DNA of 64,000 nt from a phage: the sequence record PZ476263.1. One strand, given 5' to 3'. The translations under genes and the position numbers were made by a program. Positions 50,965 through 56,420 of the stretch are shown here, piece by piece; the first letter of the stretch is position 1; each line of letters opens with the position of its first letter. The notes below the pieces were generated by a model, which had not been told where the DNA came from, did not search any database, and worked only from the letters and a program-made list of their open reading frames with translations.

Positions 50965-51047
50965 GCGCGGGTGTATCTCAACGGTCTTCTAAACCGTCGT
51001 TAATCGAGTAATTGGAGTATGAAGGTTCGAGTCCTTCCTCCCGCGCT
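50965..51047 (+). tRNA. Atypical tRNA-like element, possibly tRNA-Arg(TCT) or a pseudo-tRNA
   Basis: Canonical features: acceptor pairing gcgcggg/cccgcgc, T-arm gaagg-ttcgagt-ccttc, anticodon arm acggt-cttctaa-accgt. Atypical features: only 9 nt where the D-arm should be, a 23-nt variable region, 2 extra nt between the T-stem and acceptor, and no encoded CCA. Confidence 0.35.
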
Positions 51048-51064
51048 AAGTTCTTTTAAATGCA

Positions 51065-51140
51065 GGCCCTTTAGCTCAGTGGTTAGAGCAGGCGACTCAT
51101 AATCGCTTGGTCGCTGGTTCAAGTCCGGCAAGGGCCACCA
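51065..51140 (+). tRNA. tRNA-Met(CAT), elongator type (could be Ile2 if C34 is modified)
   Basis: Full cloverleaf folded by hand, G1-C72, anticodon loop ctCATaa, CCA encoded. Confidence 0.85.
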
Positions 51141-51157
51141 CTCAATAGTTTATTTAC

Positions 51158-51249
51158 AAGATCATTCAGTAATTAAGCGAATGCCGGAAGCAGAACCGGA
51201 TCAACAAATGCGTACGGGTGTCATCGCCACCTAGCAACTGAATGATCTT
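51158..51249 (+). ncRNA. Long hairpin: 13-bp perfect inverted repeat enclosing 66 nt
   Basis: aagatcattcagt (51158-51170) pairs with actgaatgatctt (51237-51249). Inner stem ccgg-N8-ccgg. Followed by TTTT. Confidence 0.5.
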
Positions 51250-51276
51250 TTAAATTCTCTTAACCTCATAAAATCC

Positions 51277-51305
51277 TTGACATAATAAGAAATTCCTGAT
51301 AACAT
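51277..51305 (+). promoter_or_regulatory. Promoter TTGACA-N17-TAACAT with a TGn extended -10
   Basis: -35 at 51277-51282 and -10 at 51300-51305. Confidence 0.55.
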
Positions 51306-51332
51306 CTCTATATCGACTTAATTGAGGTGCTT

Positions 51333-51707
51333 ATGCCTAAAGCTGAAATCGTTACTAGAAAACGGGGTCGGCCTACTACAGAGGAAAGTATCGCTATCAA
51401 CACCGAGAAGGCGATTCTTCATGCTCGTTCAGAGTTTGCAAGACTTACTCCTCAGGCGATTAAGACTCTGGAAGGTCTACTCACTTCCGGTACAGAGAAA
51501 GTTAAAGAAACTACTGCGAAGTATATTCTTGAACAGGCTGAAAAAGCTAACAATCTGTACACGATGGAAGATAATGAGGAAGATTTAGCGGGAGGTTCAA
51601 CTTCTGCGGATTCTGATACTCATAAAGGCCCTTCTGATGTATTTAAGGATGCAATTCCTCTTACTACTCAAATCAGAGAGTATAAAATTGCAGAAGGTGA
51701 AAACTAA
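51333..51707 (+). CDS. Hypothetical DNA-binding-like protein; weak small-terminase candidate (124 aa)
   Basis: RKRGRPTTEES N-terminus and an acidic tail. ATG at 51333 follows GAGGTG. Confidence 0.3.
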   Translation: MPKAEIVTRKRGRPTTEESIAINTEKAILHARSEFARLTPQAIKTLEGLLTSGTEKVKETTAKYILEQAEKANNLYTMEDNEEDLAGGSTSADSDTHKGPSDVFKDAIPLTTQIREYKIAEGEN

Positions 51708-51727
51708 AGGCTCTTAGGGGCCTTTTA
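51707..51727 (+). terminator. Rho-independent terminator
   Basis: Stem aaggctc/gggcctt with a 4-nt loop, followed by TTAT. Overlaps the stop codon. Confidence 0.55.
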
Positions 51728-51946
51728 TTAATAGTTCTTTTTAATGTAGTTGCTTGGTGTAATTTTTCGGCAGATGGCTGCAACCATCCTATCGATAACT
51801 CATAGTTAGTGCTGCAAACACTGGCTACCTTAAAGAGAATTTAACTCGTCGAATAAGGAAGATGCTGATCTCAAAGTGAGGTCACTTACCGCAAGGGGTG
51901 TGCATAGACTCCCGCTTCCGAATAGACTATGTGGCGAGATGTATTT

Positions 51947-52028
51947 GGGGACGTGGCAGAGCGGTCGAATGCGCCTGACTGTAAATCAGGTATCCCACAC
52001 GGTGGTTCGAATCCATCCGGCCCCACCA
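51947..52028 (+). tRNA. tRNA-Tyr(GTA)
   Basis: Anticodon arm cctga-ctGTAaa-tcagg, 10-nt variable region, T-arm ggtgg-ttcgaat-ccatc, one A-G mismatch in the acceptor stem, CCA encoded. Confidence 0.8.
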
Positions 52029-52282
52029 AATTAAGAAGCAGGGTCGCTACCTGCAAGTCGTCGGACTGAGATTCCCTGAATAAGACCCGACTTTAAGGCG
52101 TACAAATGTTCGGTTTAAAGTCCCTTATCTCACAGTCGAAACGGCGCATCCTATTCAGCCGTGATGTGATGTAATCACTGACCTCTTTGAAGGATCATGG
52201 CATCCTATACAAAAAAAAAACCTGAATAATTTAGGTTTTAATGCCTGGGGGTTCGTAGCCCTATTACTAAGAGGACTTAACT

Positions 52283-52492
52283 ATGTTTACTATTAAAATT
52301 ATTGATATCGATGGAAATGAGACGGGTGTTTCAACAAGGCACTACAGATGGTACTCAAAAATGAATATTTTTGATGTGGAGGGTGGAGAATCTGTTTCTG
52401 TACCACCAAAAAGTCGTGCTTATGTAATGAATGACAAAGGAATAACCATCGGTAGATACACAAATACAGCGGATCAACGCGTTCTTAATTAA
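52283..52492 (+). CDS. Hypothetical protein (69 aa) embedded in the tRNA island
   Basis: RBS AAGAGGA. Its stop lies 1 nt before tRNA-Gly. Confidence 0.55.
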   Translation: MFTIKIIDIDGNETGVSTRHYRWYSKMNIFDVEGGESVSVPPKSRAYVMNDKGITIGRYTNTADQRVLN

Positions 52493-52493
52493 A

Positions 52494-52568
<75 letters not shown>

Positions 52569-52667
52569 AACACATATCCATCTGACGCGTTTATGGGGTT
52601 GACCTGATCAATCTTCTCCTAATTTCGTGTGAAGACATCATGATTGTTGGGATGGATAAACTTATTT

Positions 52668-52742
52668 TGGGGATTAGCCAAGCGGTAAGGCATCGGATTT
52701 TGATTCCGACATTCACTGGTTCGAGTCCAGTATCCCCAGCCA
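52668..52742 (+). tRNA. tRNA-Gln(TTG)
   Basis: Acceptor tggggat/atcccca, anticodon arm tcgga-ttTTGat-tccga, T-arm actgg-ttcgagt-ccagt, CCA encoded. Confidence 0.85.
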
Positions 52743-52747
52743 ATTAA

Positions 52748-52824
52748 CGGTGTGTAGCGCAGCTTGGTAGCGCATCTGGTTTGGGGCCAGAGGGCCGTTG
52801 GTTCGAATCCAACTACACCGACCA
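52748..52824 (+). tRNA. tRNA-Pro(TGG)
   Basis: Acceptor cggtgtg/tacaccg, D-arm gcgc-agcttggta-gcgc, anticodon arm tctgg-ttTGGgg-ccaga, T-arm gttgg-ttcgaat-ccaac, CCA encoded. Confidence 0.9.
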
Positions 52825-52871
52825 ATTTACCCTCATATAACAATAATAAATATTCTCCTCTCCTTCGCCTC

Positions 52872-52899
52872 GGCTCTCCTTTTTTGGAGGGCCTTTTTT
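52872..52899 (+). terminator. Rho-independent terminator closing the tRNA island
   Basis: 8-bp stem ggctctcc/ggagggcc followed by T6. Confidence 0.7.
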
Positions 52900-52939
52900 A
52901 TTTGGTCTTTCGGTGATAAAATACTCAAAGGAGGTAATC

Positions 52940-53302
52940 ATGCCAGATTTTAAAAAATATTTATTCATTGCTATATTCATAGTGTTCTTAATTTCATCTG
53001 CTAAGCTTTATCTTAATCATGTTGAATCAGTAGGTTACGAAAAAGGTTTCAATGTTGCTAACTCTGCTTGGGTAAAAAAGGCAGGGGAGTACAAAAAGAA
53101 AATTGACGATACATATGAAGAAAACAAGCGTCTTAACGAGGAGCTTTCCCGATCCAATCAGGAAAAGATAAAGGATGAAAAGGCAAAAGAAGAAAAAATT
53201 ACCGATATGCAGATCGAATACTACAAGTCTGAAAAAGGTAAGGATGTCTTTGACAATAATGAAATAATTGACATATACAACGAATCCTTGGGGGTAAAAT
53301 GA
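52940..53302 (+). CDS. i-spanin (Rz-like) candidate (120 aa)
   Basis: N-terminal TM YLFIAIFIVFLISSA followed by a charged coiled-coil. RBS GGAGGT. A TGaTAAAAT extended -10 lies at 52914-52922. Confidence 0.55.
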   Translation: MPDFKKYLFIAIFIVFLISSAKLYLNHVESVGYEKGFNVANSAWVKKAGEYKKKIDDTYEENKRLNEELSRSNQEKIKDEKAKEEKITDMQIEYYKSEKGKDVFDNNEIIDIYNESLGVK

Positions 53303-53598
53303 GAAAAATATTTATAGCTTTCTTCTTTTGCTTTTTACTTTCCGGTTGTCAATCAGCAGAAATCTGTGGCCCTACGGAAGAAGTAACTATTGAGAAGATT
53401 CTTCCTAAACCTGATCTTGAACTCCTTGTCAAAGAAAAGGAAAAGAAGCTCATCCAGAAGGGATCTACTAATGCAGACGTTGGAAAGGTCATGAGTGATA
53501 ACAATCTTCGTTCCAATCGTATAGAGCGCCGTTGGGAAGGCTTAAGGACTTACGTTTGCAACAGTTTCAAAAATATCCCTAAAGAATACTGCGATTAA
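53299..53598 (+). CDS. o-spanin (Rz1-like outer-membrane lipoprotein) candidate (99 aa)
   Basis: Lipobox FLLSGC after a signal sequence. ATGA overlap with the i-spanin gene. Confidence 0.6.
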   Translation: MRKIFIAFFFCFLLSGCQSAEICGPTEEVTIEKILPKPDLELLVKEKEKKLIQKGSTNADVGKVMSDNNLRSNRIERRWEGLRTYVCNSFKNIPKEYCD

Positions 53599-53607
53599 CA
53601 TTGACAG

Positions 53608-53638
53608 GCCCTTGCTTTTATGCAAGGGCTTTATTTTT
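53608..53638 (+). terminator. Rho-independent terminator
   Basis: 8-bp stem gcccttgc/gcaagggc followed by TTTATTTTT. Confidence 0.75.
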
Positions 53639-53649
53639 AGTGCTTTTTG

Positions 53650-53658
53650 TGGTAATAT
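53650..53658 (+). promoter_or_regulatory. Extended -10 element TGgTAATAT upstream of terL
   Basis: Same TGnTAAWAT architecture as at 52914-52922. No clear -35. Confidence 0.35.
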
Positions 53659-53695
53659 ACCTTTTATCGACAGAAGTCAATAGTTAAGGAGAATT

Positions 53696-54050
53696 ATGTC
53701 TGCTACATTCGCACCTGCGAGTCGCAAGCAACAAATGGTTCTCGAATCTACAGCACAGATTATGGTAATAGGTGGTGCAGCAGGATCAGGTAAATCATAC
53801 CTTTTACAGTTGATGCCTTTGCTTATTGTAAACGACCCTAAAACAGCCTGCATCATGTTTCGTCGTACTGTACCGCAGATTCGTGGACAAGGTGGCTTGT
53901 TTGACAAAGCTAAAGATATTTATAACCAGCTGCCTCCGGTAGTTAAGCCGAAGTTTAAAGAGAACGAGATGACTGCTACATTCCCTAACGGAGCAACCGT
54001 TAAGTGGCAGTCTATGCAACACGTAAGTGATAAATACGACATCCAGGGGT
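53696..54050 (+). CDS. terL: Terminase large subunit, exon 1 (Walker A)
   Basis: GGAAGSGKS. The ORF stops at TAA 54050-54052, right after KYDIQG. The exon ends on the U at 54050. Confidence 0.8.
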
Positions 54051-54960
54051 AAAAATTTCCTGCCCATCGTATCTTAATCGGTGAAACTCTGTTATAATAA
54101 GTACAGACAATACCGAGATCCATTACCTGAAATGACAGTAGGGAGATATGATGAAAAAATTTGAAATTGTTCCAAGCAAACCTGAATTTTCCGTAAGTGA
54201 AGACGGGCTGATTATGTTTACCTCTACAGGTACTATTCTTAAGCCGTATGTTGATAAGGATGGTTACCACAGGGTTAGAAATTTCTCTGCTGGAGGTAAA
54301 TCTCATTACATCGCCGTTCATCGCGCCGTTGCTGAGGTTTTTGTTAAAAACCCTAACCCAAAAGTGTTTAAGATTGTTAATCACTTGGATAATGTTAAGA
54401 GCAACAATCATAAAACCAATTTGGAATGGACAACCGAATCATTAAACCGAGTTCATGCAGTTCATGCCAACGGTACAGCATCTGTTAGAAACAATGTTAA
54501 ATTTACAGAAGGTCAAGTCAGAAAGGTGTGTGAACTTTTGAGCTTGGGCTATCGGATAGTTGATATTGTGAAACTTACAGGCGTTGATAGATTCAATGTG
54601 ATGGCAATTAGAAGCGGAAAATCTTGGGTTCAGATCTCTTGTGAGTTTGAAACTTTAAAAGTAGAAAGAAAAGATACACTGTCTGAAAAGACGATTCTTT
54701 GGATTAAAGACCAAATTAATCGCCAAAGGTCAGATGATGAAATACTTTTAATGTCGGTAAGACTTACAAAAGAAGAGCTTGAAAGAGCAAAGAAGATTAT
54801 TTCATTGATGGATTGTAACGACTAATGCTGATGAGTGTAAGCATGTAGGGCCAAGCGGTCCGAAACGATACGCCAAGGATGGAAGATATAGTCTGAACTA
54901 TATGGTGACATATAGCTGCTTAAGCAGGGTTAAGATTAGCGATCTTAATCGAACACAATG
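54051..54960 (+). mobile_element. Group I intron (td-like, IA2-type core) carrying an HNH homing endonuclease gene
   Basis: The 3' part gaagatatagtctgaactatatggtgacatatagctg...ggttaagattagcgatcttaatcgaacacaatg closely parallels the T4 td intron 3' end as I recall it. It starts after a U and ends in G. Confidence 0.7.
54148..54825 (+). CDS. Intron-encoded HNH homing endonuclease (225 aa)
   Basis: GYHRV...HRAVAEVFVKNPNPKVFKIVNHLDNVKSNNHKTNLEWTT (I-HmuI / HNH_3-like). RBS AGGGAG. Confidence 0.8.
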   Translation: MMKKFEIVPSKPEFSVSEDGLIMFTSTGTILKPYVDKDGYHRVRNFSAGGKSHYIAVHRAVAEVFVKNPNPKVFKIVNHLDNVKSNNHKTNLEWTTESLNRVHAVHANGTASVRNNVKFTEGQVRKVCELLSLGYRIVDIVKLTGVDRFNVMAIRSGKSWVQISCEFETLKVERKDTLSEKTILWIKDQINRQRSDDEILLMSVRLTKEELERAKKIISLMDCND

Positions 54961-55020
54961 TGGAATTTACATTTATAGGTGTGGACGAAGGCACTCAGTT
55001 TGAGTGGGAGCAGTTAATCT
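54961..55020 (+). CDS. terL: Terminase large subunit, 60-nt exon 2 (Walker B)
   Basis: Joining gives ...KYDIQG-L-EFTFIGVDEGTQFEWEQLI, in frame. Ends on the U at 55020. Confidence 0.65.
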
Positions 55021-55341
55021 AGCTGCCTCGTACAGTAATGTACGATGAGAAATTCTTGTGAATTGCTGGAAAATCCTTAGAGCTTGTAAAACTACAACAT
55101 GACCTGCAAAGGTGAGTGTGAATGTTAAAAATTTACAAGATTGGACGATCAGCCTCCAAGCCTCTTTACGAGAGGAAGGTTCAACGACTAGCCGAAAGGC
55201 GTAGATCATAAGCAAATGATGATCGAAGTGCAAGACCCCTACCTTATTGGTAGGGTGAAGATATAGTCTGATCTGCATGGTAACATGCAGCAGTGCTTGA
55301 GTGCACGGCAACGAACTTGCGATCCGTTGCGAACATAACAG
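55021..55341 (+). mobile_element. ORF-less group I intron (td-like core)
   Basis: gaagatatagtctgatctgcatggtaacatgcagc...gcgaacataacag mirrors the 3' core of intron 1. Internal ggttcaacgactagccgaaaggc. The alternative 3' end at 55329 is also in frame. Confidence 0.6.
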
Positions 55342-56420
55342 TAGAATACATGATGTCTCGTCTTCGTTCCAGTTCTTCTTACCCTTCACGAATGGTAATT
55401 AGTTGTAACCCTGATCCTGATCATTATCTTCGTAAGATGGTTGATTGGTATCTCGATAAGGATGGTTATCCTGATCCTACAAAGGATGGAGTCATTCGAT
55501 ATTTCGTTCGAGTTGATGACCAATACATGTGGGGCGAATCAGTAGAAGAGCTTAAGAAGCGGTACGGTAAGAAATGTAAGCCTGTTTCTTTTACATTTAT
55601 ATCTTCTACTATTTACGATAACCCACCAATGCTTATTAACAACCCAGACTATCTAGCACAGCTGGAAGGTCTTAATGAGGTTGACAGAGCAAGACTGTTA
55701 CACGGCAACTGGGATGCACGTCCTCAGGGTGCTAACTATTTTAAACGTTCTTTTCTTAAAGAGGTTGATGTTCTTCCTTTAGGTGTAGATAAGGTTAGAT
55801 CATACGATAAAGCAGGAACTGAACGTTCTACAGGTAATAAAACACCTGACTTTACAGCCGGAATCGGTGTGGCGAGAGATCAGGACGGAATTTATTATCT
55901 TTTTGGCGATTATTGTGAAGAGTTTGTTGATGAAGGTGATTGGTCTACTGGCAACCTTGGTAGGTTCTGTAAGAAAGCTGGTGAACGAGATACGATCATT
56001 ATGAAACAAGCAATTCATGACGGTGATGATGTTAGAATAATATTCCCTGTTGACCCTGGTCAAGCGGGTATTGCTGAATTCACTACATCTTCCCGAGAAT
56101 TATTAAATCAAGGATTCATTGTTGAGAAAGACCCAACTCCTGGTAACAAGAAGAAGCTTGTACGCTTCTCTCCGTTTGCTAACCTTGCTCAGAACGGATT
56201 TGTTAGGATTGTTAAAAAGTCTTTCCCTTTGGATACCTATGAAGCATTAATGAAAGAGCTTGAATCTTTCAATGGTGAAAGGTCAACAGGGACACGTAAA
56301 GATGACTGGGTGGATGCTATCTCAACCGGAATAAATTTCCTTGAGAAAACAGAAATAGTCAGGGCTGTTACAATACCACGACCTTCTGCCCCAACACTTT
56401 ATTCGAAGTATCGACGATAA
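55342..56420 (+). CDS. terL: Terminase large subunit, exon 3 (nuclease domain)
   Basis: ...L-EYMMSRLRSSSSYPSRMVISCNPDPDH.... Spliced total is 1494 nt, giving 497 aa. Confidence 0.7.

Follow-up and report, generated by a model that had tools for sequence, protein, structure and literature searches.

The window analyzed here is a stretch of 64,000 nucleotides (nt) from a Vequintavirinae-like (rV5-like) myovirus (sequence record PZ476263.1), and the subject of this study is its gene for the terminase large subunit (terL, product TerL), which is interrupted on both sides of the codons for the Walker B motif. We concluded that terL very probably carries two independently acquired self-splicing group I introns, which fill two of at least three slots lying within 57 nt around Walker B. 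The gene structure, splice sites, ribozyme folds, endonuclease family, intron lineages, variable occupancy and mosaic cassette described below were established by sequence analysis. The features concerned are the following, all on the + strand.

terL exon 1: 53696-54050, 355 nt; M1-G118 and the first base of the Leu119 codon; holds Walker A (GGAAGSGKS)
Intron 1 (site 118/119): 54051-54960, 910-nt group I intron of the phage IA2-like type, from covariation across six orthologs
Helices of intron 1: internal guide sequence GCCC 54062-54065; P10 strand UUCC 54057-54060; P3 54068-54073; omega-G 54960
P6 and P7 of intron 1: P6 5′ strand 54118-54123; P6 3′ strand 54808-54813; P7 5′ strand 54820-54824
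HNH homing endonuclease gene: 54148-54825, 225 amino acids (aa), NUMOD4 and HNH_3, I-HmuI-like, in the P6 loop of intron 1
terL micro-exon 2: 54961-55014, 54 nt; last two bases of the Leu119 codon, codons E120-Q136 and the first base of the Leu137 codon
Intron 2 (site 137): 55015-55341, 327-nt group I intron (Rfam RF00028) lacking an open reading frame (ORF)
Helices of intron 2: internal guide sequence GCUGC 55022-26; P10 strand UCUA 55018-21; P7 55186-90 with 55264-68; omega-G 55341
terL exon 3: 55342-56420, 1079 nt; last two bases of the Leu137 codon to R495, and the stop codon

The closest annotated relatives of the window are the Escherichia phages A5-4, UPEC06, LTH01, A73, W70 and A7_1 (about 83% DNA and 93% TerL protein identity). 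In all six, terL is uninterrupted and has 495 codons, equal in length to the spliced product of the window, which is colinear with its intron-less relatives and identical to UPEC06 TerL at 461/495 residues. In Pfam, the spliced protein gave one continuous match to Terminase_6N (PF03237; 82.2 bits, residues 25-274) and a match of 29.8 bits to Terminase_6C (PF17289), and the Terminase_6N match fell from 82 bits to 22 and 34 bits when the two large exons were scanned separately. By these domain matches, the gene is a terminase large subunit with an N-terminal ATPase and a C-terminal RNaseH-like nuclease. The micro-exon encodes (L)EFTFIGVDEGTQFEWEQ(L), and its codons FIGVDE (54972-54989) are assigned to Walker B by their motif pattern; a PDB sequence search with the spliced TerL returned a spurious endolysin as its sole match, so that Walker B is not tied to a solved structure. 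The proposal of the initial annotation that two group I introns flank the Walker B codons is therefore upheld by the Rfam match of intron 2, the covariation described below and the continuous Terminase_6N match, as is its remark that the insertion region is a conserved catalytic motif of the kind favored by homing elements.

For the splice sites, we enumerated every 5′ site after U combined with every 3′ site after G that keeps an open frame, and compared the products with the uninterrupted relatives. Among all such pairs for intron 2, only 55014/55341 yields a 495-aa protein with the ...EWEQ-L-EYMM... of the intron-less relatives, which places the sites between 55014 and 55015 and between 55341 and 55342 and makes the micro-exon 54 nt long. 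This pair also fits P1, in which GCAGU (55010-14) pairs with GCUGC (55022-26) and U55014.G55022 lies at the splice site, and P10, formed by UAGA (55342-45) and UCUA (55018-21). Relatives with introns in terL were found as metagenomic contigs (L029 to L035 in the following) via homologs of the HNH protein, and the intron 2 ortholog in L030 has its predicted splice site at the equal position, with its P10 lengthened by a matching change in exon and intron. For intron 1 there is a sole solution, after U54050 and after G54960, with P1 formed by GGGU/GCCC (U54050.G54062) and P10 by GGAA/UUCC. The rule of a U before the 5′ site and a G before the 3′ site is obeyed by 14/14 introns mapped in the relatives. 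The predicted spliced junctions are GGGGU joined to UGGAA for intron 1 and GCAGU joined to UAGAA for intron 2, or in longer form CAGGGGU joined to UGGAAUUU and GGAGCAGU joined to UAGAAUAC.

These results correct some of the positions first given for the second intron. The micro-exon had been taken as 60 nt long, with the 5′ site after 55020, which is off by 6 nt; the pair 55020/55341 would insert two residues (LI), and the frame enumeration, P1 and P10 all place the site after U55014. The favored 3′ site, 55341, was right, in agreement with the enumeration, omega-G55341 and P10, and the alternative at 55329 was rejected, as it adds four residues with either 5′ site. We also rejected the P1 that Rfam draws for intron 2 (GGCACUCAG with CUAGCUGCC), which implies a splice site after 54995, because every in-frame 3′ partner of that site deletes or replaces QFEWEQL. 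Gene callers divide terL of the window into two fragments of 118 and 375 aa with an HNH gene between them, and overlook the 18-codon Walker B exon; the exact junctions obtained here permit the correct join to be annotated.

Intron 1 was examined by a covariation test, in which the ORF was deleted from six site-118 orthologs and the remainder was aligned to a hand-drawn P3-P9.2 structure of 52 pairs. In this model 97.7% of the cells were paired and 23/52 pairs showed compensatory (double) changes, a result reached by 0/500 shuffles, and pairing fell to 30-37% with slid partners. Covariation was present in P3, P6, P7, P7.1, P7.2, P9 and P9.2. On this evidence intron 1 is a group I ribozyme whose core helices P3-P9, the P3/P7 pseudoknot among them, are backed by covariation. 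It has no P2 and only a minimal P5.

The ORF of intron 1, which is preceded by the Shine-Dalgarno sequence GGGAG, was said in the initial annotation to be an endonuclease gene, and this holds. A profile of 27 homologs matched PDB 1U3E (I-HmuI) over residues 11-161 with E=1.8e-21, phrog_59 was matched with E=1.3e-30, and HNH_3 was matched by 26/27 homologs (best E=3.4e-11). Residues H79, N87, N91, N100 and H103 are invariant among the 27 homologs. The product is thus, by family, an I-HmuI-like HNH homing endonuclease, with the HNH (beta-beta-alpha-metal) motif preceded by a NUMOD4-type DNA-binding strand region at the N-terminus. Homologs 96-47% identical to it occur in 8 diverged metagenomic contigs, always in terL and at the same site. 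A search for relatives of the protein in IMG/VR found none, and an exact-protein look-up of the window HNH gave no record.

Some details of intron 1 and its orthologs were observed in addition. The last six HNH codons (54808-54825) overlap the ribozyme core, namely the P6 3′ strand, J6/7 and the P7 5′ strand; the stop codon TAA (54823-25) is located partly within P7 and partly beside it, and the P6 3′ strand covaries with its partner despite being coding sequence. The P8 segment at 54893-54902 (CCAAGGAUGG; CCAAGGAnGG) is invariant in sequence in all six site-118 orthologs. In the site-118 intron of L032, P7 (3666-3672, 3737-3741) reads GAUCA/UGAUC and not the near-universal GACUA/UAGUC, so that one of the best-conserved helices carries a double compensatory change here.

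Intron 2 matches Rfam RF00028 over model positions 1-253/253 with 78.7 bits (gathering score 50; E=2.5e-18). Its P1-P10 model holds for 86/86 pairs in the window and 83/86 pairs in the L030 ortholog, with 18 double compensatory changes, and includes P2, P5a/P5b, P6a and a P8 of 7 base pairs (bp). Modeling of the secondary structure, which had been suggested as a check, thus folds both introns as group I, intron 1 over P3-P9.2 and intron 2 over P1-P10. Intron 2 was described as ORF-less, and indeed no sense ORF longer than 33 aa was found in it and no conserved ORF on either strand in the comparison of the window with L030. A 138-aa antisense ORF (54973-55389, - strand) spans all of intron 2; it was dismissed as probably spurious because it is broken into pieces of at most 60 aa in the L030 ortholog.

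Helices P7.1 and P7.2 between P7 and P3′ were found in both introns, and both helices covary in each. Together they are a hallmark of phage IA2-like group I introns of the T4 td/nrdB/sunY type. Both introns therefore appear IA2-like by architecture. They do not form a twintron, since a 54-nt coding exon separates them and each has its own complete P1-P10. A motif scan of the window for further hidden intron cores found none.

The independent origin of the two introns is suggested by their relationships to other introns. A neighbor-joining tree and identity matrices grouped the introns by insertion site, and therefore a duplication of intron 1 is not supported. Placing the cores among phage introns had been advised in the initial annotation, and in the tree the site lineages are separate and the window introns are no sister pair. 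Over the 3′ halves, intron 1 is 83-98% identical to its site-118 orthologs, and intron 2 is 84% identical to the site-137 intron of L030 and 78% to the site-129 intron of rV5. The 3′ halves of introns 1 and 2 are 67% identical to each other, the lowest value in either intron's row apart from one of 68%.

An origin of the intron 2 lineage from the site-129 lineage of rV5 and L035 seems unlikely, yet it has some features in its favor; it would require ectopic movement, for instance through reverse splicing or illegitimate homing, to a site lying 22 nt further downstream, together with a changed guide sequence. The 3′-half tree puts the rV5 site-129 intron with the two site-137 introns (74-78% identity against a background of about 70%), both lineages begin with UAAU and end with GAACAUAA.., and the near-identical site-129 intron of L035 bears an Endonuclease_7 ORF, so that the site-129 lineage can carry one. 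However, global identity is just 57%, the 5′ halves stand at the background level of 66%, and the grouping, which has no bootstrap support, may mirror only a shared subclass.

The origin proposed in the initial annotation, namely that intron 2 descends from intron 1 by local duplication or transposition and either lost the endonuclease gene or never possessed it, is very improbable. It was derived from a 3′ core shared by the two introns, and the identity of about 80% over blocks of about 35 nt is correct (BLAST alignment 36/45, E=5e-7, 39 bits). The introns are also only 54 nt apart, of equal broad type, and equal in their 3′ architecture, with P7.1, P7.2 with a CAAGCG loop, P9, P9.2 and a GAACA..G tail. 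The shared block is, on this comparison, a real homology, but at the level of the whole intron family and not specific to the two window introns: it is the J8/7-P7-P9 consensus, which can be read directly in the consensus line of Rfam. Across a panel of 19 introns, the block was equally or better conserved (86-97%) in introns of unrelated phages and genes, that of intron 1 being 97% identical to the block of a marine Zobellviridae primase/helicase intron and that of intron 2 86-91% identical to those of introns in Aeromonas phage PhAER-4, in rV5 and in the W70 primase/helicase gene. BLAST of intron 1 against intron 2 found no alignment outside the shared block, whereas intron 1 aligned with Vibrio and Felix-O1-like nrdD introns at 63-73 bits and intron 2 with Staphylococcus and Aeromonas phage introns at 121-165 bits. 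Furthermore, the low identity of the 3′ halves and the different architectures in P2, P5, P6a and P8 speak against a copy, and intron 2 has a clear ortholog at the equal site in L030 (80% over the whole length) and closer 5′-half relatives at site 254 of L032 and in PhAER-4.

A gene of PhAER-4 (L007 2408-2946) and the primase/helicase gene of W70 (L006 1274-2982) each have two group I intron matches close together. The W70 gene carries an intron-2-like sequence, although terL of W70 is intron-less.

Finally, it is scarcely credible that intron 1 or intron 2 is a decayed, non-splicing remnant and terL a pseudogene or a source of split polypeptides, for although non-splicing HNH insertions are on record (CB7_245 and Aeh1 nrdA; cited in PMC7344957) and P8 of intron 1 is very short, all core helices are intact and kept by compensatory changes, the exon differences are synonymous, the same introns are kept in several diverged phages, and the 18-codon micro-exon holds the essential Walker B and has no start codon or ribosome-binding site, so that split translation cannot yield a working ATPase.

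Two independently acquired introns also agree with the occupancy of the sites in relatives, as read from nucleotide-level mapping of the exons in the metagenomic contigs. Codons 118/119, 127/128 and 137 mark three adjacent sites, all within 57 nt, which are filled in differing combinations, as follows.

Window: HNH intron at 118/119; 127/128 empty; ORF-less intron at 137
L029: HNH intron at 118/119; ORF-less intron at 127/128; 137 empty; 26-nt exon
L030: HNH intron at 118/119; ORF-less introns at 127/128 and 137; micro-exons of 26 and 28 nt
L031: HNH intron at 118/119; 127/128 and 137 empty
L033: HNH intron at 118/119; ORF-less intron at 127/128; 137 beyond reach, as the contig ends
L032: HNH intron at 118/119; 127/128 and 137 empty; intron with helix-turn-helix (HTH) ORF at site 254
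L034: HNH intron at 118/119; 127/128 and 137 empty; ORF-less intron at site 458
L035: HNH intron at 118/119; 127/128 and 137 empty; intron with Endonuclease_7 ORF at site 129
phiTE and CB7: 118/119 empty; HNH intron at 127/128; 137 empty
rV5: 118/119, 127/128 and 137 empty; ORF-less intron at site 129 and HNH intron at site 227
Escherichia coli phages: all three sites empty

The 54-nt exon of the window corresponds to the two micro-exons of L030 without the middle intron. With the codon GAC and not GAU at site 127, the window lacks the U needed there for a splice site. Among terL relatives in IMG/VR, all were intron-less except phiTE and one rV5-like contig, and the insertion sites 118/119 and 137 were not found in the annotated phage collection. 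A degenerate 24-nt pattern from the 5′ end of intron 2 had no matches in metagenomic or viral contig collections, so that L030 provides the only site-137 ortholog found.

Several of these contigs showed further peculiarities. In L030 (Logan SRR21707705_1055, 3818-4483), three group I introns lie within 57 nt of coding sequence, leaving micro-exons of 26 nt (TGGAATTTACTTTTATCGGTGTGGAT) and 28 nt (GAAGGTACACAATTTGAGTGGGAGCAGT). L035 has, at 3843-4758, an rV5-type intron between DEG and TQF (site 129) with an Endonuclease_7 (PF02945) ORF at 4094-4684, and the ends of this ribozyme are near-identical to those of the ORF-less version in rV5. In L034 (about 1669-2652) and L035 (about 1883-2578), whose terL genes are more distantly related, Walker A is split in frame by an insertion of 230-330 aa that starts with Cys (..IIGGAAG before C, and N before SGKS..); judged from the sequence, this insertion in the terminase P-loop is probably an intein.

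The comparison of the window with L029 shows how sharply the contents of the slots can differ between near-identical phages. The two are 97-100% identical over 52600-54150 and from 55344 onward (98% nt identity in terL exon 1, and only 2 mismatches across the first 300 nt of exon 3), and their divergence is confined to a cassette of about 1.2 kb (54157-55343). Within it identity is 72% for the HNH ORF and 84% for the 3′ part of intron 1, all 7/54 differences in the micro-exon are synonymous, and the two phages carry different ORF-less introns at different sites. Such a mosaic is what replacement driven by an endonuclease, with co-conversion of the adjoining exon sequence, would be expected to leave. 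In L033, intron 1 is 94% identical to that of the window, yet a site-127 intron follows it, and thus the ORF-less introns reassort relative to the intron 1 variants.

Considering these results, we propose a plausible model for the splicing and turnover of the two introns, in which actual splicing, the activity and target of the endonuclease and hitch-hiking are argued by analogy with known group I introns and I-HmuI-type enzymes. Each ribozyme would fold independently, with its guide sequence pairing with the end of the upstream exon (P1, with the U.G pair) and the start of the downstream exon (P10), and each intron would then excise itself by guanosine-initiated two-step transesterification, giving the mRNA for the 495-aa TerL. 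Intron 1 would be the mobile element; near codon 118/119 its HNH enzyme presumably introduces nicks or cuts into terL alleles, whose repair by recombination would copy intron 1 into them or displace rival intron variants. Intron 2, the ortholog of the L030 site-137 intron, has no endonuclease gene of its own and would be inherited vertically. It could travel as a passenger in the co-conversion tract during homing of intron 1 or swaps between intron 1 variants, because it lies only 54 nt from the intron 1 insertion site.

Enzymes of the I-HmuI type nick DNA close to where the intron inserts; when a rival phage carries an intron of its own, that allele is attacked as well, and the intron is replaced together with flanking markers. 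This competition behavior was reportedly described by Goodrich-Blair and Shub in 1996. By analogy, such allele replacement would match the cassette swap between the window and L029. It is quite possible, and we put this forward tentatively, that in this clade the part of terL around Walker B is a three-slot intron landing pad whose contents reassort among near-identical phages: rival site-118 variants with diverged I-HmuI-like enzymes would swap as cassettes of about 1.2 kb and drag along neighboring ORF-less introns, which would persist as hitch-hikers. As part of this possibility, exon skipping could also occur in terL of the window by analogy with other phages; the exon of 54 nt (18 codons) is flanked by two phase-1 introns, and therefore its omission would leave TerL in frame but devoid of Walker B.

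Several points weigh against two independently acquired, self-splicing introns and their joint turnover. The relatives are Logan/ENA metagenomic assemblies, one of them only 980 nt long, in which chimeric assembly is possible, and the tree was built by neighbor joining on pairwise identities, without bootstrap. With Rfam RF00028, intron 1 scored 23.6 bits, over its 3′ part only, and did not reach the gathering score of 50, because the 678-nt ORF in the P6 loop splits the core; its orthologs scored 25.7-36 bits. At the gathering threshold Rfam detected intron 2 only, and intron 1 needed the E-value mode and the hand-built covariation test. P8 of intron 1 has only 2-3 bp, compared with stems of 4-8 bp in intron 2 and the site-127 and site-129 introns. 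The single HNH sequence of the window scored 16.6 and 18.8 bits, below the Pfam gathering scores of 24.8 and 23.4 for HNH_3 and NUMOD4, respectively. Among the available contigs, none has intron 2 but lacks intron 1. As regards hitch-hiking, the patterns of occupancy reveal that an ORF-less intron and an intron 1 variant can be parted from each other; in L033, a near-identical intron 1 is followed by the site-127 intron instead.

The kind of element and its arrangement are already established by rV5, CB7 and the multi-intron terL genes of Bastillevirinae, and the window presents no new kind of element. In rV5, terL has been described in three segments, one with a homing endonuclease (ORF64ABC, DQ832317; Kropinski et al., 2013; PMC3606486). 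This phage shares with the window the subfamily, the gene, three exons and two group I introns, an ORF-less one next to Walker B and another with an HNH gene. In contrast, its sites are 129/130 (between DEG and TQF) and 227/228 and not 118/119 and 137, its ORF-less intron comes first, its middle exon has about 98 codons and not 18, and the HNH proteins are 34% identical. The terL intron of Pectobacterium phage CB7 splices in vivo, as verified by RT-PCR and sequencing (PMC7344957). The phages phiTE and CB7 also belong to the same subfamily and have an HNH group I intron inside the Walker B codons, but theirs is single and lies between FIGVD and EG (site 127), the slot that is empty in the window and holds ORF-less versions in L029, L030 and L033. 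The DNA-polymerase introns of Bacillus phages SPO1 and SP82 (I-HmuI and I-HmuII) have the same endonuclease family and a similar intron type, but differ in host gene and phage group.

Genes for Pol and TerL in Bastillevirinae hold 2-3 introns with a small internal exon and show exon skipping, which has been reported for phage group I introns in Twort orf142 (three introns) and in SIOphi (PMC11878797). As in the window, several close group I introns interrupt one essential gene, with small internal exons and a mixture of ORF-containing and ORF-less introns; in contrast, those are phages of Gram-positive hosts with different insertion sites, and the internal exon of the window is 54 nt (26 and 28 nt in L030). 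In T4, mobE mobilizes the defunct I-TevIII intron in trans, which has been called 'collaborative homing' (PMC2790892). The mosaic pattern suggests that in the window, too, an intron without a working endonuclease may spread via a nearby cutter and co-conversion, but here the putative helper is encoded in the neighboring intron 54 nt away and not in a free-standing gene.

To these known systems the window adds a Walker B exon of very small size and the insertion sites 118/119 and 137, which were not found in the annotated phage collection. Among the by-products, the natural series of occupancy states and the clean cassette swap are the most useful. The window and five or six related contigs make up a compact series for group I intron turnover, spanning adjacent sites with no, one, two or three introns, one and the same intron with and without an ORF, and a cassette swap in a 98%-identical background. 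This series could be used to measure the persistence of ORF-less introns beside an endonuclease-encoding neighbor.

Two observations concern the surroundings of terL. Six tRNA genes (Rfam/tRNA model) are clustered at 50967-52821, just upstream of the terL region, and the same holds for rV5 and LTH01. In L031 (367-1596) and L034 (1-792), a product matching Pfam Gad2 (PF26128, named after an anti-Gabija protein) is encoded a few genes upstream of terL.

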